This document shows, in pieces, positions 7,015-37,292 of a stretch of DNA of 64,000 nucleotides (positions within the stretch are counted from its first letter, which is position 1; every line of letters begins with the position of its first letter). The stretch comes from Chloroflexota bacterium (GTDB lineage Bacteria > Chloroflexota > UBA5177): NCBI GenBank assembly GCA_025449555.1, contig JANWJD010000084.1, forward strand, positions 712 through 64,711, written 5' to 3'. The position numbers and the translations under genes were made by a program. The notes under the pieces are model-generated. The model saw only the letters and a list, made by a program, of their open reading frames with translations, did no database searches and had not been told where the DNA came from.

Positions 7015-8265
7015 ATGAAATCATCGACTTCCGATGGAGCGACCGGCGCGCGAACTGTATTCACTCGCGACCGGATGACACCCGCTGCAGTCTTGTTGCT
7101 GCTCGCGGCTCTGGCCTGGGTGGGCGTGCTTATCTGGGCTCGCTCCCCGTCGATGATGGACGCCATGCCTGGGCCCGTGGCCCCAACTCGCGCCACCCTC
7201 TTCGCGGCCATGTGGCTTGTCATGATGGCCGCCATGATGCTGCCCGCTGTCACTCCGATTGTCCTGCTCTTCCGCACCGTGCAGCGAAGCCGTGTCGCCC
7301 GTGGCAACCTCGCAGTTCCGACCAGTTCCTTCGTCGGAGGCTATCTCCTGGTATGGCTGGCAGCCGGTGTCGCGGCGTTTCTGATATACGCGCTCGTGCA
7401 AAGCGTCTCCCCGCGTCTCCATGCCGACACCGGATGGCTCCCCTATGTCGGAGGCGTCATCGTCGTGCTGGCCGGGATCTATCAGCTCACGCCACTCAAA
7501 AACGTCTGCCTACGCCACTGCCGTTCGCCGATTCACTTCCTGATGCACGGGTGGGGCGAAGGCAAGCTCGGCGCATTCCGCACCGGCGCCGGCCACGGTC
7601 TTTTCTGTCTGGGGTGCTGCTGGGGAATCATGGCCGTGCTCTTCGTCGTCGGCCTGATGAACCTCGGCTGGATGGCGGCCTTGAGCCTGGTCATTACGAT
7701 CGAGAAATTGGCGCCGCGCGGCGTGACCATCGCCCGAGGTGTGGGTGGTCTCTTCATCGCATTGGGCGCCTTGATCGCCTTCTGGCCTTCAGCATTTGCT
7801 CCCGCCGGCCTCACCATGGGAAACACCATGTCCATGGGATCTCCGAGCCGGCCCGTATCGACTGTGACGGCCGGCCCGTACCGGCTCACACTTCGAGTGG
7901 GAATGGCTGAGCAGTTGCTTACACCGGCCGTCGCGAAAGGGACCCACGCACGATCTGGAGAGATCATGCTTGGAATGTCGGCCGGTCAGCCCATAACGAT
8001 GAACGATAGGTCGAATCTGCGCCATGTCGAGGTGCGAATCGTCGACCGCGCCATGGGGATGCTCGTCCGCAATGCGCGAGTTTCGGTGCAGCTCGGCCCG
8101 AGCCACATGTCTACCCAGTCGATTCCGCTCATGCCGATGTACGGAATCATCCAGGGCCGCAAGGACTACCATTACGGCGCCAACATTTCCATCTCCCCGG
8201 GACAATATACGGCACACGTGCGCGTCAACAACGTCCGCGCGAGCTTCCCGATCCGCGTCCACTAA
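7015..8265 (+). CDS. DUF2182-family predicted metal-binding integral membrane protein with an extra C-terminal ~130-aa beta-rich (YtkA/FixH-like?) domain
   Basis: Multi-TM protein with HCRSP / CLGCC motifs (DUF2182); sits next to DUF1326 as is usual for this pair; C-terminal non-membrane extension. Confidence 0.65.
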   Translation: MKSSTSDGATGARTVFTRDRMTPAAVLLLLAALAWVGVLIWARSPSMMDAMPGPVAPTRATLFAAMWLVMMAAMMLPAVTPIVLLFRTVQRSRVARGNLAVPTSSFVGGYLLVWLAAGVAAFLIYALVQSVSPRLHADTGWLPYVGGVIVVLAGIYQLTPLKNVCLRHCRSPIHFLMHGWGEGKLGAFRTGAGHGLFCLGCCWGIMAVLFVVGLMNLGWMAALSLVITIEKLAPRGVTIARGVGGLFIALGALIAFWPSAFAPAGLTMGNTMSMGSPSRPVSTVTAGPYRLTLRVGMAEQLLTPAVAKGTHARSGEIMLGMSAGQPITMNDRSNLRHVEVRIVDRAMGMLVRNARVSVQLGPSHMSTQSIPLMPMYGIIQGRKDYHYGANISISPGQYTAHVRVNNVRASFPIRVH

Positions 8266-8325
8266 GAGCCAGACTAACCCGCTCACCCGTTCGGTGTTCC
8301 CGCACCACACTGACACACGCCGAGC

Positions 8326-8360
8326 CCTCGTAGGGAACGGCCGGCGCGCCGTCCCACCCC
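8326..8360. repeat. GC-rich hairpin repeat family 2 (copy 1), downstream of the DUF2182 gene
   Basis: CCTCGTAGGGAACGGCCGGCGCGCCGTCCCACCCC; copies at 13438 and 20228 match 28/30. Confidence 0.7.
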
Positions 8361-8416
8361 GACCACGCGTGCAGAACACAAGGACCTCATTCCCCACTCC
8401 CATTTCCCCCGGCAAA

Positions 8417-8494
8417 CGTTGTAGCGTTGACCCTTGTGGCCAACCCGTTGTCCGAAGCGGCCGTTGTAGCGTTGACCCTTGTGGTCAACCCGTT
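8417..8494. repeat. two tandem copies (45-bp pitch) of REP-like palindromic repeat family 1
   Basis: CGTTGTAGCGTTGACCCTTGTGG(C/T)CAACCCGTT at 8417-8449 and 8462-8494; hairpin GTTGACC-CTTGT-GGTCAAC. Confidence 0.8.
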
Positions 8495-8539
8495 CTCCAA
8501 CGTGTTCATGCGCCGCGATCTCTCGGGAACTGCCCTGGC

Positions 8540-9040
8540 CTATAACGACTGCACCCAATCCCTCAACGCTGCCTCCGTATTCCAGAAAGCGAGGTGTCGC
8601 CAGGGAATTGACTCCGGGTCAAAGCTGGCGAACTCCAGCGCTTCGCTTCCCCCGGTCGGCTCGGTCAAAGCCTCCGCCAGGTACACGATCAGGACCGTCG
8701 GCGCCTCGCGACGCGAGTAGATATTCAGTAGTCCAGTGATTCGTACATCCATGTGCAGCTCTTCAAATGTCTCCCGACGTGCCGCTTCTTCCACTGTTTC
8801 ACCCATTTCCATGAACCCTGCAGGAAAGGTCCAGGCACCCAGACGCGGTTGAATCGCCCGACGCAACAACCACGCCCGTCCGTCCCGAGTCGGCACCACA
8901 CCCGCCACCACCTTGGGATTGATGTAGTGGATCTCCTCGCAGACAGTGCAGACCAGCCGCTCTCGCTGTTCGACCACGACGTACTGCGGTGCCAGTGGTT
9001 GGCCGCAGCCGGAACAGAAACGTGGAGGTGAGTTATACAT
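8540..9040 (-). CDS. NUDIX hydrolase with N-terminal zinc-ribbon
   Basis: CxxC...CxxC N-terminus; NUDIX box GFMEMGETVEEAARRETFEELHM. Confidence 0.8.
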   Translation of the reverse strand: MYNSPPRFCSGCGQPLAPQYVVVEQRERLVCTVCEEIHYINPKVVAGVVPTRDGRAWLLRRAIQPRLGAWTFPAGFMEMGETVEEAARRETFEELHMDVRITGLLNIYSRREAPTVLIVYLAEALTEPTGGSEALEFASFDPESIPWRHLAFWNTEAALRDWVQSL

Positions 9041-9119
9041 TTAATGGCGTGCGTGGGAACGGTTCTTGCTGCGGTCACGGTCACCTGCACACTTGCCCGA
9101 ACCATCAGGAGGCCCGCCA

Positions 9120-9332
9120 GTGAAAGTCACCATTTCAGCTCGACAGTTCGAACGGTCCGGGCGGTTAGGACCTTTGTGCCTGGCATGTGGAAACAAGCAG
9201 CGATTCTGGGTGGAGCGTCCGGACGGCGTGCAACTGGCAGACCTGTGCGACGTATTAGATGACAATGTTCGCGTTCGGGCGTGTGGACGGTGTCGTTCTC
9301 GACATTCCCTTGTCATGGCGCGGGTAGATTGA
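9120..9332 (+). CDS. hypothetical small Cys-rich (CxxC...CxxC) protein
   Basis: 70 aa from a GTG preceded by AGGAGG (7-nt spacing); two CxxC pairs (CLAC, CGRC); 3' end overlaps the convergent metalloprotease by ~78 bp. Confidence 0.3.
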   Translation: MKVTISARQFERSGRLGPLCLACGNKQRFWVERPDGVQLADLCDVLDDNVRVRACGRCRSRHSLVMARVD

Positions 9333-10673
9333 TGCAGCGCGAAACTGTATGGTTGCAGCGCGGCCGCCGGTTAACCCCGTCTGCAAGTTTCCGATCGCAC
9401 TCATCGCAATAGTCACGCTGCCACGGCCCGGGGCATACGAGCCAATATGCACGGTCACGCCGTGATTTTGATCGTGCTTTAGCCACCGAACAGTGTTGCC
9501 AAGGGGTGCACCGGGGGTGCTGAAGACTGCTGCCAGGCGAACGCTGGATGGGGCGGACATCTGAATGGTGACTGGTAAACCTGGCGGAGCGCTGAACCGC
9601 ATGTACCCCTGTGTCCACGGCTGCAACACCACTGCGTCGTGTCCGGTGGCCGGCGTTTCGAACGGAAAGCTCGTCACTGTCGGGTAGGTCGATCGGGGTG
9701 ACACGAAGTGATTGCGCAGTATCCCCCTGTATCCGTAGAGCCCAGCATCGTTCAAGACCTGCGCCACGGACCAGTGGGCAAAGGCATCAACGCAGGTTCC
9801 ACGTTTCTCGCGACGCAACACGGCGTCGATTCCGCGCATGCCGGACTGGCGATTGCGTACGAGGTCGCGCGTAAATCGCGGTCCGTACTGCCCGGCGAGA
9901 TAGGCTACAAACATTCCGGCCCGGCCGTACGAGACCGGTCCGAACTGGCGCAAAAACTCAGCACTCTCAGTCATCGAAGTCAGTGGCCAGCCTGGGTCGG
10001 AGGCGGCAGCCTCCAGGCGCAGTTGGTCACGTGGAGTCCAGAACCCATTCGCCAGCTGGGCATAAAAAGAGAGCCCTTCATTCAGCCACACCTGCTGCGG
10101 CGCTACACCTCTATCGAGCACTCGAATCCGGAAATCGATCAGGTGCTGTAGTTCGTGCGCAAGTGCCTCTTGCACATCAGCCATTCTGTTCGGGTCCGGC
10201 ATGGACACAAGCGAACGCACGTACAGAAAATTGCCGTGGTTGGAATGCGCAGCCACGCCCGGCGCTGGAGCCAGGTCGCTTTCATTGAAGTACCCAAAGG
10301 TCGTTCCACTGAACGGGGCCATGACAATGGTCACCGCGTGCAAGCCGCGCGGTGCACCAAAATCCTGTATATCAGTGGGGAATATGCGTTTGTCGAAGGC
10401 ATGGATCAAGACCTCGGCCTCGCGCGGCGCCAGTTGAGACTGACCGCAGTTGAAAACGGTAGCGCGCGTGCCCACTGCGACCTGATCGCATGCAATGCGC
10501 TTATAAACACCATTGTCCACCACCCAGAACGTCCTTTCCGGCTCTGAGGCACGAACGGGCACTGCAGGAGAAATCACTCCCGTCCAGAGCACCGCGCCCG
10601 TGATTGCGGCAACGACGGCCCAGTGTACGGCCCGACGGCACGCTCGAAAAATATGCCCGATCCTCACCAACAC
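9255..10673 (-). CDS. secreted zinc metalloprotease (gluzincin: HELQH...E)
   Basis: HELQHLIDF HExxH motif with Glu 23 aa downstream (NEGLSFY); predicted signal peptide (RR...AVVAAITGAVLWTGVISPAVPVRA|SEPE) if started at GTG/TTG near 10673; the ORF to 10892 runs through two REP copies and ends 14 bp from the mnmG start. Confidence 0.6.
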   Translation of the reverse strand: MLVRIGHIFRACRRAVHWAVVAAITGAVLWTGVISPAVPVRASEPERTFWVVDNGVYKRIACDQVAVGTRATVFNCGQSQLAPREAEVLIHAFDKRIFPTDIQDFGAPRGLHAVTIVMAPFSGTTFGYFNESDLAPAPGVAAHSNHGNFLYVRSLVSMPDPNRMADVQEALAHELQHLIDFRIRVLDRGVAPQQVWLNEGLSFYAQLANGFWTPRDQLRLEAAASDPGWPLTSMTESAEFLRQFGPVSYGRAGMFVAYLAGQYGPRFTRDLVRNRQSGMRGIDAVLRREKRGTCVDAFAHWSVAQVLNDAGLYGYRGILRNHFVSPRSTYPTVTSFPFETPATGHDAVVLQPWTQGYMRFSAPPGLPVTIQMSAPSSVRLAAVFSTPGAPLGNTVRWLKHDQNHGVTVHIGSYAPGRGSVTIAMSAIGNLQTGLTGGRAATIQFRAASIYPRHDKGMSRTTPSTRPNANIVI

Positions 10674-10682
10674 ACCCGCCAA

Positions 10683-10789
10683 CCGTCGTAGCGTCGCCCC
10701 TTGTGGGCGACCCCCGGTTGGCGCCGACCCGCCTGGCCAATCCCGCATCCGTAGCGTCGCCCCTCGTGGGCGACCCCCGGTTGGCGCCG
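10683..10789. repeat. two tandem copies of REP-like palindromic repeat family 1 in the divergent metalloprotease/mnmG intergenic region
   Basis: CCGT(CG)TAGCGTCGCCCCT(T/C)GTGGGCGACCCCCGGTTGGCGCCG at 10683-10726 and 10749-10789; hairpin GTCGCCC-CTTGT-GGGCGAC. Confidence 0.85.
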
Positions 10790-10905
10790 CGCAACGACAT
10801 GGGAGACGTTCCAATCGACTCTCCACCGACAACGTCCTCAGACCGGAACCATCATACAAGGCGCCCTGGAACTCCCACCCGGGTTGGTACAATCATGCCA
10901 CTGCT

Positions 10906-12912
10906 ATGAACGATTATCGCTCCCCACCTTCGCCTGCTTCTTCCGACTCGTATGACGTCATCGTGGTGGGTACGGGCCACGCCGGATGCGAGGCTGCTCT
11001 CGCCGCCGCGCGTATCGGCTGTCGCACCGTCGCCTTCACCATGAACCTCGACAACATAGCTCTCATGCCCTGTAATCCCTCGGTGGGCGGCCCGGGCAAA
11101 GCCCATCTGGTGCGAGAAATAGACGCCCTGGGTGGAGAGATGGGCCGAAACACCGACCGCACCAGCGTCCAGATCAGGATGCTCAACACCAGCAAGGGGC
11201 CCGCTGTCCAGGCCCTACGGGCACAGAGCGACAAACGGGCCTACTCTCAATCGATGAAGTCGGTCCTCGAAGAGCAGCCGCGGTTGGATGTAAAGCAAGC
11301 AGTGGTCGACGATCTCATCATCGAACACGATCAGGGCGTACCGCACGTGGCGGGTATCATCACTAGCACCGGCACACGGTACTTCGCCCGCGCCGTCGTG
11401 TTGACCACCGGCACGTTCCTCAAAGGACGAATCATAATCGGAGAGCAGTCATATCCGGCGGGTCGCGCCGGTGAGTTTCCCGCCGACAGTCTGTCCGGCT
11501 CCCTGGCCCGTTGCTCGTTCCGACTCGGACGCCTCAAAACGGGAACGCCGCCGCGTATCGACGGCCGGACCATCGACTACAGCCTCACGTCGTTGCAGCG
11601 TGGTAGCGACTCGCCCCTTTTTTTCAGCCACGATGCTCGCGAGGCGTATCGGAATGCTCGCATGTCGTCTCCCGATGCCCGGGCGCCCATCGCCGACTTC
11701 GAAGCCGCGCGGCACGGGTCCGATCCAGCGTGGCGATCACAGCTCCCCTGTCACCTGGTTCAAACCACGCAGGAAACCCACGACATCATTCGAGCCAACC
11801 TGCATCTGGCGCCCATGTACAACGGCGGGATTACAAGTGTCGGTCCGCGCTACTGTCCCTCGATCGAGACCAAGATCGTTCGCTTTGCCGAAAAGCAGTC
11901 TCATCTGCTCTTTCTAGAACCCGAAGGCTGGAAGACGAGAGAGGTATACGTGCAGGGAGCAAACACCAGCCTGCCGGAAGACGTGCAGGGCGCCATGCTG
12001 CGCAGTATTCCAGCGCTGCGTCGCTGTGAGGTCATGCGCGCCGGATACGCCATCGAATATGACTACCTGCCCGGTACGCAGGTCTATCATTCACTCGAGT
12101 CAAAGCCGCTTCGAAACCTCTATCTTGCCGGCCAGATCATCGGCACCACCGGCTACGAAGAAGCGGGGGCACTCGGCATCATGGCCGGTATCAACGCGGC
12201 CCGGCGTGCTCGATCGCAAGACGAAGTGGTGTTGCGGCGCGATCAGGCCTACATCGGGGTACTGATCGACGATCTTGTCACCAAGGAAATGGACGAACCG
12301 TATCGGATGCACACGTCACAGGCTGAGTTCCGGTTGCTCTTGCGCCAGGACAATGCCGAAGAGCGGCTCGGTGCCCTGGCGTTTGATCTCGGCCTGGTCG
12401 ACGAACAGCGCCACCGCCGGCTCGAGGACCGTCGACGACAGATCGAGACGATTGTCAGCGGTCTCGACGATTCGTGGCTCCGGTTTGACCGCGAGACCAC
12501 CCGGCGACTGGACGTGCTGGGCTGCCGGCCGACCAGGCAGAACGTGCGCGCGCGCGACTTCCTCTGCCGTACGGACGTGCACATCGGCATGCTGCAGGAA
12601 CTGGGGCTCGTGCCGTCCGAACTTTCCGACGAGGTGGCTCGTGAGGTCGAGACTGCGGTGAAGTACGCGGGTTACGTGGCTCGCCAGGAAGGCGAGGTGA
12701 AACGCCTGCGCCGCCTCGAGGATCGGGTGATTCCTCCTGACGTACAGTACGACTCGGTCCGCGGCTTGCGCGCCGAAACGATGGAACGATTGTCCAGAAT
12801 TCAACCGCGAACCATCGGGCACGCTTCTCGGATTGCAGGAGTAACCGCGTCTGACATTTCCGTTCTCCTGGTCCATCTGGAGCAGATTCGCCGTCAACCT
12901 GTGCAAGGGTAA
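10906..12912 (+). CDS. mnmG: tRNA uridine-5-carboxymethylaminomethyl(34) synthesis enzyme MnmG (GidA)
   Basis: SYDVIVVGTGHAGCEAALAAAR FAD-binding N-terminus and full-length MnmG similarity; ATG at 10906; the upstream ORF part from 10513 crosses the repeat elements. Confidence 0.92.
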   Translation: MNDYRSPPSPASSDSYDVIVVGTGHAGCEAALAAARIGCRTVAFTMNLDNIALMPCNPSVGGPGKAHLVREIDALGGEMGRNTDRTSVQIRMLNTSKGPAVQALRAQSDKRAYSQSMKSVLEEQPRLDVKQAVVDDLIIEHDQGVPHVAGIITSTGTRYFARAVVLTTGTFLKGRIIIGEQSYPAGRAGEFPADSLSGSLARCSFRLGRLKTGTPPRIDGRTIDYSLTSLQRGSDSPLFFSHDAREAYRNARMSSPDARAPIADFEAARHGSDPAWRSQLPCHLVQTTQETHDIIRANLHLAPMYNGGITSVGPRYCPSIETKIVRFAEKQSHLLFLEPEGWKTREVYVQGANTSLPEDVQGAMLRSIPALRRCEVMRAGYAIEYDYLPGTQVYHSLESKPLRNLYLAGQIIGTTGYEEAGALGIMAGINAARRARSQDEVVLRRDQAYIGVLIDDLVTKEMDEPYRMHTSQAEFRLLLRQDNAEERLGALAFDLGLVDEQRHRRLEDRRRQIETIVSGLDDSWLRFDRETTRRLDVLGCRPTRQNVRARDFLCRTDVHIGMLQELGLVPSELSDEVAREVETAVKYAGYVARQEGEVKRLRRLEDRVIPPDVQYDSVRGLRAETMERLSRIQPRTIGHASRIAGVTASDISVLLVHLEQIRRQPVQG

Positions 12913-13338: not shown

Positions 13339-13437
13339 CCCAGTCCCGCCTTGGGCTTGACTTCCGCCCTCAGACCTGGACGGATTCAGCCGACCATCGC
13401 TACAATTCGTTCCTCATCGCCACAACTCTCGGCGATA

Positions 13438-13471
13438 TTCGTAGGGGACGGCCCCCGCGCCGTCCCACCGG
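13438..13471. repeat. GC-rich hairpin repeat family 2 (copy 2), between convergent NUDIX and AKR genes
   Basis: TTCGTAGGGGACGGCCCCCGCGCCGTCCCACCGG. Confidence 0.7.
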
Positions 13472-13686
13472 TATTGTATGAGGGGACCAGAGCAGATCAC
13501 CACGCCGGGCGATCCCTACCTATATCAGAGAATGTCAAGATGGCCTCACCGGTTGCTTCCGGCGTGGCGCCGCGAAGCGGCATGGGAGACTCCATCGCCG
13601 AGGCCTGTCGATCCTCAGGCATAGACGTTTCGAAAACACTTCCATCGCCACTATGCGACATGCTTGACTGATAGGCGACTCCGTAC

Positions 13687-14562
13687 TCATCCAGCAATGC
13701 TGTCCAGCTCTACCACGTCGTACTCCGACAGGGTCAGCGCAGCTCCGGCAACGTTCTCACGCAGATGTGCCACAGACGATGTGCCGGGAATGAGCAGGAT
13801 GTTCGGGGAGCGCTGCAGCAGCCACGCCAGGGCGACGGCGATCGGTATGGTGTTGAGCCGGGTGGCGACCGATGCCAGTGTCCCTGATTGCAGTGGGGAG
13901 AACCCACCGAGCGGGAAGTAGGGCACATAGGCGATTCCCTGGGCCGACAGTGAGTCGATCAAGGCATCGTCGACTCGATGGACCAGGTTGTAGAAATTCT
14001 GTACGCATACGATCGGCGCGATGGACTGTGCTTCCTCGATCTGCTCGGCAGAGACGGTACTGATACCGAGCTGCCTGATCAATCCCTCGTGCCGCATCTG
14101 CGCCAGCGCGGTGAACGGTGCGGCGATCGAATCAGGATCTGGGCTGCCGAATCCCCCGACGCGCAGATTGACGACCTCGAGCACGTCGAGGCCGAGGTTG
14201 TCCAGATTGTCGCGCACCGCCCGGCGCAGCTGCTCAGGAGACCGCGCATGCGGCCAGCCGCCCTCGGCGTCACGTGACGCTCCGACCTTCGTGACAATGT
14301 GCAATGAGTCCGGGTAGGGGTGCAGGGCTTCCTTGATGATCTGGTTGGTCACATGTGGGCCGTAGTAGTCGCTGGTGTCGATGTGCGTGATGCCCATGTC
14401 CACCGCTTCGCGCAGGACGGCGATCGCGGCGTCGCGGTCCCTGGGTGGCCCGAAGACGCCGGGACCCGCCAGCTGCATCGCGCCGTACCCCATCCGAGTA
14501 ACCGTCAAACCCTCCGCCATGGTGAACGTTCCACCGGGAAGTGTCGTCATTGCCATGAGCAT
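13687..14562 (-). CDS. aldo/keto reductase
   Basis: AKR-family similarity (GYGAMQL, IDTSDYYG); start chosen at MLMAMTT (14562) behind GAGGAAAGG. Confidence 0.85.
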   Translation of the reverse strand: MLMAMTTLPGGTFTMAEGLTVTRMGYGAMQLAGPGVFGPPRDRDAAIAVLREAVDMGITHIDTSDYYGPHVTNQIIKEALHPYPDSLHIVTKVGASRDAEGGWPHARSPEQLRRAVRDNLDNLGLDVLEVVNLRVGGFGSPDPDSIAAPFTALAQMRHEGLIRQLGISTVSAEQIEEAQSIAPIVCVQNFYNLVHRVDDALIDSLSAQGIAYVPYFPLGGFSPLQSGTLASVATRLNTIPIAVALAWLLQRSPNILLIPGTSSVAHLRENVAGAALTLSEYDVVELDSIAG

Positions 14563-14722
14563 TCCTTTCCTCGTTTTCAAAGCGCCGTGAGAGGGACACG
14601 CCACGTCCCTCGGGCGACTGCGTCAACCTCTGATGATTCCATAGTCCACCAAATGTCTCCACGCGTGAGCTCGCCCGTCCCCCTCTCCTGCGCCGCGGGG
14701 GAGGGGCTAGGGGAGGGGGTCT

Positions 14723-17700
14723 CTACGCCCCCAGCAGACGCGGTTGGTACGCGCGCACGGTCAGCGGCTTCGTATCCAGTTCGGCCACATCGTTCAGTCG
14801 CCAGATCCGCCTGGCCAGCAGCGAGGTGACGTATCGCTCCCGCTGGATCGTCCCCTCGATGATGAGCGACGAGCTGCCATTGACGACGAGACGGTAGTCG
14901 CGATACACGTTCGGAAAGACCGCAACCGGCAGTTCACCCTCTTCGTCGGCCAGCACGAGAAATGTCATCCCCTTGGCAGTCGGAGGCTGCTGGCGGCTGA
15001 TGACGATACCGGCTGTTCGCACCAGCGCACCGGGCGCTCGACCCTCGAGCTGTCCGATGGACAGGACCCGCGCGCGTTGGAGCGAGCGGCGATAAAACGA
15101 CATGATGCTGTACCGGGCTGATGCTCCCTGCAGCGTAAAGTCGATGCCGGCGACATCCAGTTCCGTCAACGGTGGCAGCTCCGGCAGGGCCGCGTCCTCC
15201 GTGCGCAGCAGGGAACGCGTGTGCGTTTCCTGATTGCGGGGCACGGTCTGCACCACCTCCTCCAGTTGCCACAGGAGCGCTCGACGGTTGAGGCCGAGGG
15301 TATCGAATGCGCCGACGGCGATCAGGTTCTCCGCCGCGTCCCGATGTGTGGAAGTCCGGCGCCAGAAATCGGTAAACGACGAGAAGGATCGGCGACCGCG
15401 CGCCTGGACGATTTCGTCCGCCGTCTCCTCGGTTATTCCCTTGACCTGCATCAGACCCATGCGAATCGCTCCGTGTTCCACGGCATACCGGGCAACGCTT
15501 CGATTTATGTCAACCGGCAGCACCCGTATCCCCCATTTGCGCGCTTCCTCGATCACGGTTTGGGTTGGGTAGTAACAACACGGCTCATTCGAAAGAATGG
15601 CGGCCAGAAATTCCGCCGGGTAATACACCTTGAGAAAGGCGGTCTGATACACCGTCTTGGCAAATGCGGCGGCATGGCTCCGACAGAAACCGTACCCCGA
15701 GAAATACGCAATGGCCTCATACATGTCTTTTGCTAACTCTCGATCGCGTCCACCCTTCACCGCGCTTTCGACGAATGCATCGCGACATACGTCCATCTGC
15801 GTCTCGGTCCGGTAATGCGACATGGCCCGGCGTAGCCCGTCGGCATCCGCATACGACAGTCCCGCGAAATCGTGCGCCACCTGCAATACCTGCTCCTGGA
15901 AGATCACGACTCCCAGCGTGTCGCGGAGACATCTCTCCAGGCTCGGATGTGGATAGGTCACCTGCTGCCGCCCCAACCGGCGCTCGACGTAGGGATCCAC
16001 CATCCCGCCCTGGAGTGGTCCGGGACGAAACAGCGCGATCTGGATAATCAGGTCGCCGAAGGTGCGGGGCTGTGAACGTGCCAGCAGCGCCCACTGCCCT
16101 GGGCTCTCTACCTGAAAGATGCCGATGGTTTTTGAGGAGCAAATCAGATCGTAAATCGCCGGATCGTCCAGCAGGAGATCGTCGATCGGCACGGTGATCC
16201 CCCGACTCCGCTCGATCCCGCGGACCGCCTCGTCGACGATGGAAAGCGTTCGAAGTCCGAGGATATCGAACTTGATCAATCCCAGCAGCTCGACATCATC
16301 CTTGTTGAACTGGCAGACACGTACCCCACTGGTCGCATACTCCAGCGGCACGACGTCGACCAATGGCTCCGCGGTGATCAGCATCCCGCCGTTGTGCAGT
16401 GAGAGATGGCGCGGGTAGCCATCCAACTGCTCGCACAGTTCGAGCACCATACTCAACGGCGTCCCTCCTGCTGCCACATCTAGTGCACGTCCAGGTGGGA
16501 TGGTGGGCACTGGCTTGTCCACGCTCGCTACGGGTCCGTCCTGTAGGGCGGGGCCGCGAAGCAGTGCCCCGCCGCCCCGTTCCATCGCGATTGCAGAACC
16601 TCCACGTTGATCCTGCACTAGGGAACTGTCGCTCTGTGCCGGCACGGGAAGTGACGTCCCGGTGACTGCTCCCGCCAGCTCCAGTTCTTCGCGCATGTGG
16701 CTGACCCCTCGATAACTGAGTTTCCCGGCCAGGTGGTCGATCAGCGATGGAGAAAAACCCATGGCCTTCGCCACATCTCGAAAGGCGGAACGTGAGCGGT
16801 AGGTAATGACGTTCGCCACCATGGCGGCATGCTCGGTGGTGTAGCGTTCCTGGATATAGGTAATAACCTCATCACGCCGTCGCGAGTCAAAGTCGATATC
16901 GACATCGGGCATTCCGACGCGACCTGGATTGAGAAAGCGCTCGAACAGGAGATTGTTCGCCAGTGGATCGACCGCGGTAATACCCAGCACGTAGGCCACG
17001 ATCGAATCGGCGGCCGATCCCCGACCGGCACACCGGATCCCGCGCTCCCGAGAAAAACGGACGATATCCCATACGCAGAGGAAAAACGAGGCAAGTCCCA
17101 TCTCCTCAATCACCGAAAGCTCGTGCGCCAGTTGTTTGCTCACCGCGGGTGTCAGTGGACGGTAGAGCCGGCGAACTCCTTCCTGACAGAGTCGATAGAG
17201 CTGAGAGAAGGCGGTTTCCCCTTCCGGCACCGGGAAATCCGGCGGACGGCAGGTGACGGCCAGCAGCTCGAGATTGCAGGAATCGGCTATTTCCTCGGAA
17301 GCGGCGGCACAGGCGTCGAATACCTCGTCAGGCAAGCCAAAGGTGGCTCGCATCTCCTCCGCCGACTTGAGGTAGTACTCGCCGTTGGGGTGCCGCACCT
17401 CGCTCCATTCGTCCAGGGTGGTCCGTGTCCCGATGCATGCCATGACATCGCGCACGCGGTATTCATCGGGATGGGCGTAATGAACGTCGTTGGCAATGGT
17501 GCAGCCTACCCCCGTGCTCGCCGCCACGTCTCGCAGCGCGTCGACCAGCGCAGTATCGTCCGGCAGGAGATGATGCTCGAGTTCGATCCAGAAGTCGCGG
17601 CCGAAGACGGCGAGATAGCGCTCGACCGCCTCGATTGCCCCCGCTCTGTCGCCTTTCAGCAGGAGTGACGGAATCTCGCCACGACGGCAACCGGACAGCG

Positions 17701-18073
17701 CGATCAAGCCTCCGGCATGAGCCGCCAGATCGGAGAACGTGATCTGGGGATCGTCCTGGTAGTCAAGCTGCGCTCTGGTGACGATGCGGCAAAGATTGCC
17801 GTAACCACTCCGGTCATCTGCCCGCAGTAGCAGGTGCGGGTTGGCGTTCGCATCGTCCGGCCCTTCTATTCGGAGGCGTATCTCCACCCCGACAATGGGC
17901 TTGATACCATGCGCCCGAGCGGCGTGAATGAAGCGGACTATGCCATACAGCCCGTGATGATCGGTGAGCGCGAGCGCGGACATGCTCAGATCTCGGGCTC
18001 GGCGGAGGAGACGATCGGGCGGAGATGCACCATCCAGAAAGCTGAAATTGCTATGAACGTGAAGCTGGATCAT
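14723..18073 (-). CDS. dnaE2: error-prone DNA polymerase DnaE2 (ImuC), PHP + Pol III alpha core
   Basis: 1116 aa; N-terminal PHP motif HVHSNFSFLDGAS; second Pol III alpha paralog in the window; directly follows imuB with the same LexA-box-controlled arrangement. Confidence 0.85.
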   Translation of the reverse strand: MIQLHVHSNFSFLDGASPPDRLLRRARDLSMSALALTDHHGLYGIVRFIHAARAHGIKPIVGVEIRLRIEGPDDANANPHLLLRADDRSGYGNLCRIVTRAQLDYQDDPQITFSDLAAHAGGLIALSGCRRGEIPSLLLKGDRAGAIEAVERYLAVFGRDFWIELEHHLLPDDTALVDALRDVAASTGVGCTIANDVHYAHPDEYRVRDVMACIGTRTTLDEWSEVRHPNGEYYLKSAEEMRATFGLPDEVFDACAAASEEIADSCNLELLAVTCRPPDFPVPEGETAFSQLYRLCQEGVRRLYRPLTPAVSKQLAHELSVIEEMGLASFFLCVWDIVRFSRERGIRCAGRGSAADSIVAYVLGITAVDPLANNLLFERFLNPGRVGMPDVDIDFDSRRRDEVITYIQERYTTEHAAMVANVITYRSRSAFRDVAKAMGFSPSLIDHLAGKLSYRGVSHMREELELAGAVTGTSLPVPAQSDSSLVQDQRGGSAIAMERGGGALLRGPALQDGPVASVDKPVPTIPPGRALDVAAGGTPLSMVLELCEQLDGYPRHLSLHNGGMLITAEPLVDVVPLEYATSGVRVCQFNKDDVELLGLIKFDILGLRTLSIVDEAVRGIERSRGITVPIDDLLLDDPAIYDLICSSKTIGIFQVESPGQWALLARSQPRTFGDLIIQIALFRPGPLQGGMVDPYVERRLGRQQVTYPHPSLERCLRDTLGVVIFQEQVLQVAHDFAGLSYADADGLRRAMSHYRTETQMDVCRDAFVESAVKGGRDRELAKDMYEAIAYFSGYGFCRSHAAAFAKTVYQTAFLKVYYPAEFLAAILSNEPCCYYPTQTVIEEARKWGIRVLPVDINRSVARYAVEHGAIRMGLMQVKGITEETADEIVQARGRRSFSSFTDFWRRTSTHRDAAENLIAVGAFDTLGLNRRALLWQLEEVVQTVPRNQETHTRSLLRTEDAALPELPPLTELDVAGIDFTLQGASARYSIMSFYRRSLQRARVLSIGQLEGRAPGALVRTAGIVISRQQPPTAKGMTFLVLADEEGELPVAVFPNVYRDYRLVVNGSSSLIIEGTIQRERYVTSLLARRIWRLNDVAELDTKPLTVRAYQPRLLGA

Positions 18074-18312
18074 CAGTCATAGAGGCGCTCTAGGAACCAT
18101 CTATCCCGCTCGCGGTAGATCTCATACGTTCCCAGGTTGTCGCACTCGACTTTGTAGTACTGGCGCGATACCTCCTGGCGCCACCAATCAGCCTGGACGA
18201 TCCAGCGCTTCAAAATAGCTGTGATGCAATGTGCCTGCCGCCGCCAGGTAAAGATCTGCGGCCGTCCCTCCGCACATTCCACCGTGATCGGGTCGGAATA
18301 CAACCTGGTCAT
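18073..18312 (-). CDS. hypothetical 79-aa protein translationally coupled between imuB and dnaE2
   Basis: ATG overlaps the imuB stop (ATGA); its TGA overlaps the dnaE2 ATG (TGATG); Trp/Arg-rich (WRRQAHCITAILKRWIVQADWWRQEV); no family recognised. Confidence 0.5.
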   Translation of the reverse strand: MTRLYSDPITVECAEGRPQIFTWRRQAHCITAILKRWIVQADWWRQEVSRQYYKVECDNLGTYEIYRERDRWFLERLYD

Positions 18313-20081
18313 GACGATCGTTTCTGTACGGCACCGGTAGTCCAGGGGAGGCCGGCCTCCCACCGAAAACGCCGTTCCGTCAGGATGTTGCCGGCATCCA
18401 CGCCGGCTACATGCTGAAACGCCGTCGTTCCGTAGCGAGCTTCAAACGCCTCATCATGGTGAGTCAGCGCCTGACGGCGCTCGGTACTGAATCCTTTCAA
18501 CCTTCCCCCGCCGTCGAGTCGGTCAAAGTCGCTCAAGGAGAGTTGAGACGGTTTCGTAAACTCTCCAATTTTCAGTTCGACTGCCAGTAAACGAGGCGCC
18601 TGCTCGTCCTCACCGGCGGTGGATCGAGGTCGCGGCCGGCTCTGCAGCAGCAACCGTTGGGCTCGTTCGAGCAGAGCAGCGGCCGTGTCGATCGGCGTAC
18701 GAACCATGGCAACCATCTGCTGTGAACGACCGATATGCTCCGGTCGCGGCGTGAAGGATGCCGGCAACATGTCTCCCTCCGCAACACCGTCCCCGCCTCC
18801 GTCACCCTTCTCCTGCTCCGCGGGAGAAGGGCCGGGGATGAGGGTGCGCGCTCCCGAAAGCGGCTGCGGCAACCCCGAAGAATGGACCCGATACGGACTC
18901 GGCAGAGTTGGTCGCTCATCGTCCCGGTGGCGTGGCGCAGCCGTCAACCGTTGTAGCGTCGCCCCTTGTGGGCGACCCCGGGCTGACGTTTCATCCCACG
19001 TGGCGCCGCCCTGCGGCATGAATGACTCCGTCGCCGAGTGTTCGGGCGCTGTCACGCTCCGACCTCCACTACATTGCCCTGTGGTCATCCGACGTGGCAT
19101 CGCTTGCGGAATGAGTGTCTCTTTTGGAGTGGGCAGCACCGACGGCTCGCCATTCTCCAGGCTTCTTGCCGGTTTTCGCTCGGGCAGTAATTGCCCCGAT
19201 TCTTCCGTCCAGATCAGGGTTAGCCCTACCAACCTTCCCCCGGCTCTACGCTCCAGCAGCTCACCGGCACAGGTGTCGGCCAGCGTACGGAGACTGTCCA
19301 TCGCTTCCTCGATCGAGCCGTCCTCGCATTCGTAGCGCGCCACAATGAACGATTTTTCTGGCGGCGGCAGGACCGGACGCGGATCGATGCCGCGCGCGTA
19401 ACGGTGAAGCTGCTCGCCGGCGGCCCCAAAGCGTTGTTTCACCGCGGAGGAAGGAAGCGCGGCAAATTGCCCAATCGTCGTGAGGCCGAGCACCTGAAAC
19501 GTCAGCGCCAGGCGAGCATCGACCCCGGGCAACAAGGTCAGCGGAAGATCCGCCAGAAAGACGCGTTCTCGTCCTCGCTCGATCACCGTCACACCATCCG
19601 CCTCGGTAGATATCGAGGCTAGCTGCGCGACCAGTCGGTTCGATGCCATGCCGAGCGAAGGAACGATGCCGGTCGAACGTTCGATCTGCCGCGCGATGGT
19701 CCGTCCGGCGCTCCACTCATCACTCCAGAAGCGCTCACATCCGGACATATCACACGCTGCCTGCCCCATCTCCTCCGGTTCGACCAGCGGAGTATGACAG
19801 CGCAAGAGGTCGCAGATTTCCTCCCATACCTGCTCGTATCGAGGGAGATCGGGCAGGAGGAAAACCCCGTGAGGACAGTGCTGGTGTGCCTGAGAAAGCG
19901 TCATGCCGAGACGCACCCCAGACTGTTGCGCCAGTTGGTTCGCCTCGCGCACTATTCCCCGCTGCTGTGGTAAGCCACCGATAACCAGCGGGCAGGAGCG
20001 CAACTCCGGGCGCCGAGCTTCCTCCACTGCCACCCAAAAGCCGGGAACCACACGAAGGTGAACGATCATCATCGCCTCCAC
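18309..20081 (-). CDS. imuB: ImuB-like Y-family polymerase homolog (SOS mutagenesis cassette)
   Basis: N-terminal ~250 aa has the UmuC/DinB-like fold pattern (VHLRV...IGGLPQQRGIVREANQLAQQSGVRLGM); long low-complexity C-terminus; immediately upstream of dnaE2; LexA box 30 bp upstream. Confidence 0.7.
   Translation of the reverse strand: MEAMMIVHLRVVPGFWVAVEEARRPELRSCPLVIGGLPQQRGIVREANQLAQQSGVRLGMTLSQAHQHCPHGVFLLPDLPRYEQVWEEICDLLRCHTPLVEPEEMGQAACDMSGCERFWSDEWSAGRTIARQIERSTGIVPSLGMASNRLVAQLASISTEADGVTVIERGRERVFLADLPLTLLPGVDARLALTFQVLGLTTIGQFAALPSSAVKQRFGAAGEQLHRYARGIDPRPVLPPPEKSFIVARYECEDGSIEEAMDSLRTLADTCAGELLERRAGGRLVGLTLIWTEESGQLLPERKPARSLENGEPSVLPTPKETLIPQAMPRRMTTGQCSGGRSVTAPEHSATESFMPQGGATWDETSARGRPQGATLQRLTAAPRHRDDERPTLPSPYRVHSSGLPQPLSGARTLIPGPSPAEQEKGDGGGDGVAEGDMLPASFTPRPEHIGRSQQMVAMVRTPIDTAAALLERAQRLLLQSRPRPRSTAGEDEQAPRLLAVELKIGEFTKPSQLSLSDFDRLDGGGRLKGFSTERRQALTHHDEAFEARYGTTAFQHVAGVDAGNILTERRFRWEAGLPWTTGAVQKRSS
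18946..18988. repeat. REP-like repeat family 1 copy inside the imuB ORF
   Basis: CAACCGTTGTAGCGTCGCCCCTTGTGGGCGACCCCGGGCTGACG; in frame, encodes GRPQGATLQRL in the imuB linker. Confidence 0.8.
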
Positions 20082-20111: not shown

Positions 20112-20123
20112 GAACATAAGTTC
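20112..20123 (-). promoter_or_regulatory. LexA/SOS box (GAAC-N4-GTTC, Cheo-box type) upstream of imuB
   Basis: GAACATAAGTTC lies ~30 bp upstream of the imuB start, beside a TATATAAT -10-like element. Confidence 0.7.
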
Positions 20124-20227
20124 TATATAATGTCAATACCTGGGACATATTTTCTCATAAGACACTACATGTTGTGGCCCACCCTCCATTCACCCGACTC
20201 TGGATGATCACCATACGCACACATGGT

Positions 20228-20265
20228 CCCAGGGAACGGCCGGCGTGCCGTTCCGCCCGAACGTC
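20228..20265. repeat. GC-rich hairpin repeat family 2 (copy 3, diverged), in the imuB/epimerase divergent region
   Basis: CCCAGGGAACGGCCGGCGTGCCGTTCCGCCCGAACG; stem GGGAACGGC/GCCGTTCC. Confidence 0.6.
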
Positions 20266-20630
20266 GGCCCGCGCTCCCGTTCCGATTCCCAAGGCGACCT
20301 TTGCACGCGGCATGGCGCCGCACCTGTGGGACACACTCCCTCTTGCTTTTCCTTCCATCCGTCGTACGGTAGAAATAAGAACCGTCCACCCTTCACCCCC
20401 CAGCGACCACCCACCACGTAAACCAGAATTCTGACGAAACAAACCCAATTTTTGGCGATATGCCGCCAGTTCACTCTCCACCAACCCAAATCCAAAGCCA
20501 ATGAAAACCCACTCAAACACCCCTTAAACCCGATATGCACCCCCAACACCGCCCTTCACCCCGCCTGAACTCAGGCGACCGGGGGCCGGCGCGCTCCCTG
20601 GTACAATCGACTACTCGACGAGGAGGCTGT

Positions 20631-30969: not shown

Positions 30970-31905
30970 GTGCTTGATATAGTAAGTGGACCGCGCGATG
31001 AGAGGACATGGATGATTGATGCGCTAGGCGCGTTTGGGAGCCAGATCGAAACCGGCGACGTGGTCCTGGTGCTTGCGCTGTTTCTGGTCGGATCGTCCCT
31101 TCTGTCCGTACTGCTGGTCGCAACGAACATCGTCGTGAGGAACGGTCGTATTGACCGATACCGCAGGTTCGCGTGGCAGATGGGTGCCTTGCTCAGCCTG
31201 GAGCAAGCCTACGAATATACCCGGGGTCGAATCAGTCCTAATACTCCCGATATTGCGTTGCTCCACTCGTACCGATTGCTCGATCTCGAATGGAAACACG
31301 GCCTCTTTGTTGAACAGCGGCTCGAACGGTTCTTTCTACAATTTCAACCGCTCATGAACGCCATCGATCTCTTCTACGTGTTGGGCCACATGGTTGGAAC
31401 CATTGGCGTGCTGGTTTGGATCTATACGCGCCGCCGCGAACAGTACGCTTTTGTACGCAATCTCATGATGCTCACCACTGCTATCGCCCTCGTGGCCTTC
31501 TACCTGTATCCCACTGCGCCTCCCAGGATGCTCGGAAATTACGGCTTTGTCGATCCCTTGCAGCTTCATCACCTGGTTGGAGATGGCGGGTCGCAGCCTG
31601 GGTCGTATACGTATAATCCCTATGCCGCTATGCCAAGCCTGCATGTAGCCTATGCAACGATCATGGCATGGGGCCTGGTACTGGCCGAACGTAAAGTGTG
31701 GGTCAGGGCGGCCGCCGTCTTGTATCCGCTGGCTATGGCAGCGACCGTCGTCATTTCCGGAAATCACTGGATTCTCGACGTCGTTGGCGCGGTGTTGACG
31801 GTCGCCGTGGCTGCAGGCGTGCTTTTGAGCGCGTCATGGCTGGGCAGTCGGTTTTCTGCTCGTCGCCATTCCATCGTTTCCGTTCCCGGTGGCCAGTCTC
31901 CATGA
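30970..31905 (+). CDS. PAP2-family phosphatase (membrane)
   Basis: Multi-TM protein with PAP2 motifs PSLHVAYA and SGNHWILDV; preceded by an AT-rich ~170-bp region. Confidence 0.7.
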   Translation: MLDIVSGPRDERTWMIDALGAFGSQIETGDVVLVLALFLVGSSLLSVLLVATNIVVRNGRIDRYRRFAWQMGALLSLEQAYEYTRGRISPNTPDIALLHSYRLLDLEWKHGLFVEQRLERFFLQFQPLMNAIDLFYVLGHMVGTIGVLVWIYTRRREQYAFVRNLMMLTTAIALVAFYLYPTAPPRMLGNYGFVDPLQLHHLVGDGGSQPGSYTYNPYAAMPSLHVAYATIMAWGLVLAERKVWVRAAAVLYPLAMAATVVISGNHWILDVVGAVLTVAVAAGVLLSASWLGSRFSARRHSIVSVPGGQSP

Positions 31906-37218: not shown

Positions 37219-37292
37219 TGGCTGCGGGACAGGGATTCGAACCCCAACTTCTTGATCCAGAGTCAAGCGTCCTACCGTTAGACTATCCCGCA
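37219..37292 (-). tRNA. tRNA-Gln (anticodon CUG)
   Basis: Cloverleaf read by hand: acceptor TGCGGGA/TCCCGCA, anticodon stem CTTGA/TCAAG with loop CTCTGGA (anticodon CTG), T-arm GGGGTTCGAATCCCC, encoded CCA. Confidence 0.85.

Follow-up and report, generated by a model that had tools for sequence, protein, structure and literature searches.

Repetitive extragenic palindromic (REP) sequences have been studied mostly in Proteobacteria. The GTAG-tagged superfamily comprises 24 REP families with stems of 6-13 bp, whose sub-families differ by complementary changes (Di Nocera, De Gregorio and Rocco 2013, PMC3733652). GTAG REPs have been reported in Chloroflexi (T. roseum, C. aggregans) and in the Planctomycetes-Verrucomicrobia-Chlamydiae (PVC) group; REPs are found within replication/repair genes, dnaE2 included; those of T. 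roseum sit within small palindromes, and head-to-tail dimers are rare (PMC3733652). Cleavage of a perfect-palindrome REP by the S. maltophilia TnpA-REP in vitro needed the GTAG and depended critically on a base of the loop (Corneloup et al. 2021, PMC8266576), and complement swaps in the stem were tolerated while mismatches were not (PMC8266576). Here, a family of REP-like repeats, named F1, was analysed in a 64-kb stretch of DNA from an uncultured Chloroflexota bacterium (contig JANWJD010000084.1, positions 712 to 64,711; the whole stretch is called the window). F1 is probably a GTAG-tagged REP that is mobilised through recognition of its hairpin, most likely by a REP-associated tyrosine (Y1/HUH) transposase (RAYT).

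F1 is presumably an uncatalogued family of a well-known class. It adds a defined REP family in uncultured Chloroflexota, together with cross-phylum relatives, and does not overturn the current understanding of these elements; only the conservation of head and loop across phyla and a composite unit, in which the REP is joined to a leader and to a second hairpin (F3), go beyond the published picture.

A degenerate 24-nt pattern was searched over the window, using 100 dinucleotide-preserving shuffles as control, and a covariance model (R1), built from diverse F1 copies, was run on the window with filters off. The pattern matched five times, always on the + strand (8421, 8466, 10688, 10751 and 18953), and never in the shuffled controls (0 of 100). 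R1 retrieved the same five copies only, with scores of 40-47 bits; the next best match scored 11.7 bits (E 1.2). All five are genuine copies of an element of the REP type:

8421..8444, + strand: F1 copy 1, stem GTTGACC/GGCCAAC with one A.C mismatch, loop CTTGT, R1 score 40.9 bits
8417-8453, + strand: extent of the repeat unit of F1 copy 1
8466..8489, + strand: F1 copy 2, stem GTTGACC/GGTCAAC without mismatch, loop CTTGT, R1 score 42.8 bits
10688..10711, + strand: F1 copy 3, stem GTCGCCC/GGGCGAC, loop CTTGT, R1 score 45.8 bits
10751..10774, + strand: F1 copy 4, stem GTCGCCC/GGGCGAC, loop CTCGT, R1 score 40.4 bits
18953..18976, + strand: F1 copy 5, stem GTCGCCC/GGGCGAC, loop CTTGT, R1 score 47 bits

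The 24-nt core consisted of GTAG-C followed by a 7-bp stem with a 5-nt loop, and the GTAG formed an unpaired head in all five copies. A preliminary description of this DNA, which proposed a REP-like family of five copies with a shared core, was correct in the number of copies and in the pitch of the tandem pairs (45 nt for copies 1-2 and 63 nt for copies 3-4, both head-to-tail), and its REP-like reading was supported by the presence of the GTAG head that defines the REP superfamily (PMC3733652). Other details needed amendment: the core was shared overall, but copy 4 lacked the CGTYG portion of the 5' core; the loop, said to be constantly CTTGT, was CTCGT in this same copy and CTTGT in the other four; the stems, described as complementary throughout, were so in copies 2-5, with two double compensatory changes between copy 2 and copies 3-5, but carried the A.C mismatch in copy 1; and the fifth copy, placed at 18946, started at 18953, beyond the range which that description covered.

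Copies 1 and 2 had a common 3' tail, and so did copies 3 and 4 (tail CCCCGGTTGGCGCCG); from their sequences, both pairs look like local tandem duplications. The independent F1 sites in the window were therefore three instead of five, and with this number of sites the + strand bias was not significant. The five copies, four of them extragenic, lay within 11 kb of the 64 kb. They were not a segmental duplication with long identical flanks, since the shared stretch covered just ~50-90 nt. Copy 3 was nested inside an outer 9-bp palindrome (10677-10685 with 10715-10723), and its DNA fold reached -18 kcal/mol (z -4.7).

Further copies, present in contigs of related Chloroflexota as well as in other phyla, were collected by scanning 185,579 species genomes with the pattern GTAGCGTNNNCCCTYGTGGNNNAC, in which three stem positions were left free on each side. 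At least 118 loci were found, against a chance expectation of ~9 matches in 596 Gb (an arithmetic estimate assuming uniform base composition). Among the matches listed, 138 were analysed, the window's five included, and 114 of them were fully Watson-Crick at the free positions, compared with 1/64 expected, which agrees with the selection on hairpin structure that had been proposed from the window alone. Eight complementary stem types were represented, and double changes were present at six of the seven stem pairs in the curated alignment. The non-complementary matches resemble what chance would give, and among them were single ones from unrelated taxa (one archaeon and several Actinomycetota). 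Real members, among the matches listed, were mostly from metagenome-assembled genomes (MAGs) of Phycisphaerae/Planctomycetota, the others being from Hydrogenedentota, Fervidibacter/Armatimonadota, Chloroflexota and a small number of unclassified MAGs. Only four short contigs were obtained when metagenomes were scanned with the window-type variant, and the element was absent from the 2.9 million viral contigs scanned.

The usual form of F1 in the scanned genomes was an inverted doublet of ~65 nt (GTAGCG-hairpin-spacer-hairpin-CGCTAC) with the heads pointing outward. Doublets were carried, for instance, by the complete genomes of Phycisphaerales bin11 (CP070827) and bin37 (CP070744) and of Fervidibacter sacchari PD1 (NZ_CP130454). 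An inverted partner, recognised by a downstream GCTAC, accompanied 81 of the 138 listed copies at a modal distance of 39-41 nt (9% in random 120-nt segments). Partner hairpins were selected only by the downstream CTAC, outside the search pattern, and gave a nearly unbiased view of the family: only 2 of 82 would fit the search pattern themselves, 70 of 82 started with GTAGCG, and in 43 of the 55 perfect ones the loop read CTTGT or CTCGT, with 10 or more different stems around it, e.g. CGTCGGGG, CGCCTGGT and CGCCACCC. Head and loop were thus kept while the stems varied, which shows that the former are constrained in sequence and the latter only to pair. The same 24-nt core was found within quite different longer contexts.

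Other arrangements were also observed. One contig carried six copies of the F1 core at a pitch of ~200-235 nt with conserved flanks (L117, 132-1234), and another a tight tandem array of the core at a 46-nt pitch (L066, 40-109). Several loci of the Phycisphaerales genomes CSMAG_2417/1437 (L004, L021, L063, L107, others) carried doublets nested in a longer palindrome, GGGGCTGTCGATTTAATC...GATTAAATCGACAGCCCC, a composite repeat with many copies.

The conservation pattern of head, loop and stem is the one that an enzyme like the S. maltophilia TnpA-REP would impose, given its requirements for head, loop and pairing. F1 resembles the REPtrons with TnpA-REP (PMC8266576) in that head and loop are kept and the stem is free but paired, and the REPIN-RAYT system (Bertels and Rainey 2011, PMC3116915) in its inverted doublets, which were present in Phycisphaerae, Hydrogenedentota, Fervidibacter and some Chloroflexota MAGs; unlike REPINs and bacterial interspersed mosaic elements (BIMEs), the window copies were not doublets. 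As in the GTAG superfamily, above all its families with short, perfect stems and the Chloroflexi family GTAG-23 of Thermomicrobium roseum, an unpaired GTAG head stood beside a stem of 6-9 bp with a short loop, and sub-families differed by complementary stem changes; as with the T. roseum REPs, F1 was nested in small flanking palindromes (copy 3) and locally clustered. It differed from the superfamily in its pentaloop, longer than the commonest loops of 2-3 nt, and in the arrangement of the window copies as head-to-tail pairs plus a singlet, which is rare in the survey of PMC3733652.

Under the mechanism proposed here, the fixed head GTAGCG, the 7-bp stem (free in sequence but paired) and the fixed pentaloop CTYGT would work as a single-stranded DNA hairpin, whose head and loop would be read by a protein, most likely a REP-associated tyrosine (Y1/HUH) transposase, that would demand a paired stem and, by cutting and rejoining beside the hairpin, would copy or move the element to new sites. 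The Chloroflexota-like lineage of the window carries the element as a single or head-to-tail unit, instead of the usual inverted doublet, in a modular repeat (leader, hairpin, linker, F3). The constant head and loop together with the free stem constitute a precise prediction of what the partner enzyme reads.

Mobility was evident from empty orthologous sites in relatives. A syntenic contig (L119, 21.6 kb) aligned to the window at 70-86% identity (blastn), interrupted at four places, which held F1 copies or the companion motifs F2 and F3 described below:

10640-10826: gap 1 in L119, holding copies 3 and 4, 187 nt in the window vs. 22 nt in L119
10640..10826, + strand: REP-bearing block, made of leader, copy 3, copy 4 and an F3-like end
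13345-14721: gap 2 in L119, holding F2, F3 and a gene for an aldo/keto reductase (13687-14604, - strand)
18933-19120: gap 3 in L119, the insert in imuB
20204-20327: gap 4 in L119, holding a decayed F2

The genes around the F1 copies and the insertion itself were as follows:

Copies 1 and 2: convergent spacer between a PpoB2-domain gene (7015-8265, + strand) and a NUDIX gene (8540-9040, - strand)
Copies 3 and 4: between a divergent Peptidase_MA-like gene and mnmG/gidA
18309..20081, - strand: imuB-like Y-family polymerase gene, a 590-codon open reading frame (ORF) with an IMS domain (Pfam), which hosts the insertion
18931..19104, + strand: in-frame insertion in imuB, 174 nt (58 codons), holding F1 copy 5, the linker and the F3 hairpin

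Presence/absence polymorphism was seen at two orthologous sites, imuB and the gidA-peptidase spacer, and the F1 family is mobile as judged by these empty sites. Run on the syntenic relatives (L119-L124), R1 gave no comparable match (best 17.6 bits, E 0.06, vs. 40-47 bits in the window). The gidA-peptidase spacer measured 233 nt in the window and 65 nt in L119, the gidA-proximal TACAAT segment being kept. The likely GTG start of the window peptidase (10673) and its first ~11 codons fell within the leader of the repeat, and these 5' codons showed no relation to the N-terminus that the orthologue has in L119; the inserted block (10640-10826) may have supplied a new 5' end to the Peptidase_MA-like gene. 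For annotation, the F1 family accounts for spurious extensions of ORFs and for unusual N-termini near its sites. The segment 13345-14721 had no counterpart at the syntenic position in L119, where ~20 nt separated the gidA-side genes from dnaE2, so that the repeats (F2, F3) mark here an indel in gene content, the reductase included.

Copy 5 lay within the imuB ORF, antisense to the gene, a departure from the intergenic placement first described, which was correct for copies 1-2 (convergent) and 3-4 (divergent). The window ImuB was 100% identical to a 586-aa protein at NCBI (P0001). In a protein alignment of nine sequences, the 58-residue segment was missing in all eight homologues (63-88% identity), and at the DNA level the 174-nt insertion was clean and missing from the genes of L119, L120, L121 and L124. 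No stop codons were introduced and the frame was kept; the insertion was located in a variable linker between conserved ImuB regions. Another relative's ImuB (P0003, from L121-L123) had its own Gly/Glu-rich insertion of ~36 residues elsewhere in the same linker, indicating that this linker tolerates insertions repeatedly. In-frame copies in DNA-repair genes, the dnaE2 system included, occur occasionally in the GTAG superfamily too, and the imuB insertion is a further instance of the tendency, reported for REPs, to land in replication/repair genes (PMC3733652). A palindromic repeat placed in-frame in the variable linker of a gene, with the conserved domains intact, is also a feature of the Rickettsia palindromic elements (RPEs) and of intragenic REPs; unlike RPEs, to which it bears no sequence relationship, F1 had one intragenic copy here, and the insert was a 174-nt composite and not a single unit. 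The insert-free relatives provide a natural comparison for the effect of the insertion on mutagenic repair.

imuB was located upstream of a small ORF (at the DUF6504 position of relatives) and of dnaE2 (14723-18073, - strand). Just upstream of imuB, positions 20112-20123 read GAACATAAGTTC (GAAC-N4-GTTC), a sequence kept in L120; it looks like a candidate LexA (Cheo-type) box, and this putative box is consistent with an SOS-regulated cassette formed by imuB, the ORF at the DUF6504 position and dnaE2.

A structured small RNA or a cis-regulatory hairpin (an mRNA 3' stabiliser or an attenuator), kept for the folding of the transcript, could also be considered, because the hairpin covaries, a few stem positions have G-U-compatible variants and copies 1-2 are located downstream of a + strand gene, a position in which REPs are known to have a stabilising effect on mRNA (PMC3733652). 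This explanation, part of which had been offered in the preliminary description, is unlikely: the only Rfam match in the whole window at the gathering threshold was a tRNA (37222-37292), and none was found in 8200-11000 at E<=1; position with respect to genes was inconsistent (3' end for copies 1-2, divergent promoter region for 3-4, antisense in an ORF for 5); the inverted doublets of other genomes put the motif on both strands; and presence/absence among close relatives is in keeping with a mobile element and not with a conserved regulator.

F1 was found to belong to a longer modular unit, which was examined by aligning the copies of the window to L036, L111 and four contigs from metagenomes. 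The F1+F3 segment of the window (18938-19029) was 82.6% identical over 92 nt to L111, a contig of the Chloroflexota MAG CTOTU41323 (DAINCT01), and the leader region (10648-10714) was 83.6% identical to the same contig over 67 nt. These DNA matches, together with the names that their sources give to two ImuB homologues (P0037, P0065), point to Chloroflexota as the origin of the window. The order of the modules was F3 hairpin with the tail CATGGGAGACTC, leader (CTCTCRCAAAATATTCCCCAT...GCAAACCGTYGTAG), hairpin, linker and F3. The leader (~45 nt) ended in AACCGTYGTAG and preceded different hairpins (F1, F2 or F4), and the repeated unit measured ~90-170 nt overall. The companion motifs in the window were:

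8330..8355, + strand: F2, a second family of hairpins with a GTAG head, GTAGGGAACGGCC..GCCGTCCC, located 65 nt upstream of F1 copy 1
13441-13466: F2 copy
20229-20254: F2 copy upstream of imuB, head decayed to CCAG
18988..19038, + strand: F3, joined to F1 copy 5, with the hairpin GCCGC-N3-4-GCGGC and then CATGRRWGACTCC
13552..13602, + strand: second clear copy of F3, inside the window-only segment 13345-14721
10775-10812 and 20305-20340: weaker copies of F3

The consensus of F2 was GTAGGGRACGGCC-N5-6-GCCGTYCC, and as a hairpin GTAGGGAACGGCC...GCCGTTCC. L120 also had an F2 copy upstream of imuB, in the same orientation as that of the window, so this F2 insertion is probably older. The F4 hairpin, GTAGCTCGGCGCTCCGTCGCCGAG, was present only in relatives. 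The coexistence of several GTAG families (F1 and F2 in the window, F4 in relatives) is shared with the GTAG superfamily; the fusion of F1 to a conserved leader and to the second hairpin F3 is not. F3 had a constant stem, a variable loop and a conserved CATGGGAGACTCC after the hairpin, and it adjoined F1 in the Chloroflexota contigs L036, L111, L130 and L131 as well. It was ruled out as a decayed inverted REP partner, since a constant stem with a variable loop is the opposite of F1, and a mini-ORF on its reverse strand (MPxGGxTP...) was judged a by-product of the hairpin sequence. A possible promoter in the leader was dropped, because the TTGACA-N16-TAGCGT spacing of relatives (L111) was not kept in the window. 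One contig (L129) had six direct AACCGWTTGAC repeats at a pitch of ~20 nt, located ~110 nt upstream of an F1 copy; these resemble the leader AACCGTYGTAG.

The length of the repeated unit and the doublets inside the longer palindrome of one Phycisphaerales MAG are features that would suit a miniature transposable element with inverted repeats (MITE) that a DDE transposase moves, the hairpin being an internal feature. Neither the 174-nt insert nor the 10640-10826 block had terminal inverted repeats at its ends, no clear target-site duplication was detected (the sole candidate was an ambiguous 6-nt repeat, GCCACG), and the recurrence of the 24-nt core in quite different longer contexts also argues against a MITE. 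The 45-63 nt pitch is superficially similar to that of a degenerate CRISPR array (clusters of short palindromic repeats at regular spacing), but there were only two repeats per site, the spacers were partly repeated (tails), and no cas gene was found among the Pfam-scanned ORFs around the element, although no dedicated cas search of the window was made. The inverted copies of other genomes refute a CRISPR array; CRISPR repeats are not known to be inverted. Either origin, MITE or CRISPR, is highly improbable.

The transposase was sought with a motif regex, tblastn (11 published RAYT/TIRYT sequences from the supplement of PMC3733652 as queries) and a profile hidden Markov model (HMM). Neither the window nor 122 element-bearing loci (~0.93 Mb) yielded a RAYT or related Y1 transposase, and the nearby RAYT that was to be checked for according to the preliminary description was thus missing from this DNA. 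The profile HMM detected control RAYTs at 1e-43 to 1e-53, and two control RAYT genes had GTAG-headed inverted doublets of the same design on both sides. A profile search of a protein collection, from which the two control genes came, gave mostly enterobacterial RAYTs, none of which could be linked to F1 genomes, and the ORFs of at least 110 aa from the 118 loci clustered into common housekeeping families, with no transposase. RAYTs are typically single-copy genes, and the search covered the window and the loci rather than whole genomes; therefore, this absence is weak negative evidence.

Several observations weigh against F1 being a REP mobilised by a RAYT. One of them, though weak, is that no RAYT or related Y1 transposase was found beside any sampled copy, in which the sampled F1 loci are unlike a REPtron. 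The window copies were singlet or head-to-tail, not the inverted doublet that is thought to be the mobile unit, and just five copies were visible in the 64-kb window, all inside 11 kb. Head and loop were near-identical in four phyla, which is unusual for REP-RAYT pairs. REP-RAYT pairs and REPIN populations are usually lineage-specific.

More broadly, GTAGCG-stem-CTYGT-stem might be, by head and loop, one REP superfamily spanning four phyla or more (Planctomycetota/Phycisphaerae, Hydrogenedentota, Armatimonadota/Fervidibacter and Chloroflexota) and served by an unrecognised enzyme clade, unusually conserved or horizontally transferred. The enzyme would be either a RAYT clade encoded away from the repeats or a different hairpin-binding enzyme, and the Chloroflexota composite (leader, REP, F3) would supply gene 5' ends and insert in-frame in the SOS mutagenesis gene imuB. 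This broader proposal is rather unlikely.

The lack of a transposase near any copy and the conservation of head and loop across phyla could be expected from a host protein-binding or nucleoid-structuring site, or from a factor-independent terminator, maintained by the host and spread by recombination without a dedicated transposase; an account of REPs includes reports of their binding to host proteins (PMC2817692). Such a role is improbable, because selection of a host site would not be expected at an in-frame position in imuB or at a block inserted in a promoter region, and the neighbouring genes belonged to unrelated housekeeping families. As for a terminator, no T-tract followed the stem (the tails were CCC...) and the terminator scan was null at all copies; promoter consensus scans also gave no site at the F1 copies. 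A hairpin-recognising transposase, most probably of the RAYT type, was retained as the preferred explanation for F1.

One more GTAG-headed perfect hairpin was present in the window at 31207 on the - strand (CGTAGG-CTTGCTC-CAGGCT-GAGCAAG), as a single copy outside the F1, F2, F3 and F4 families.

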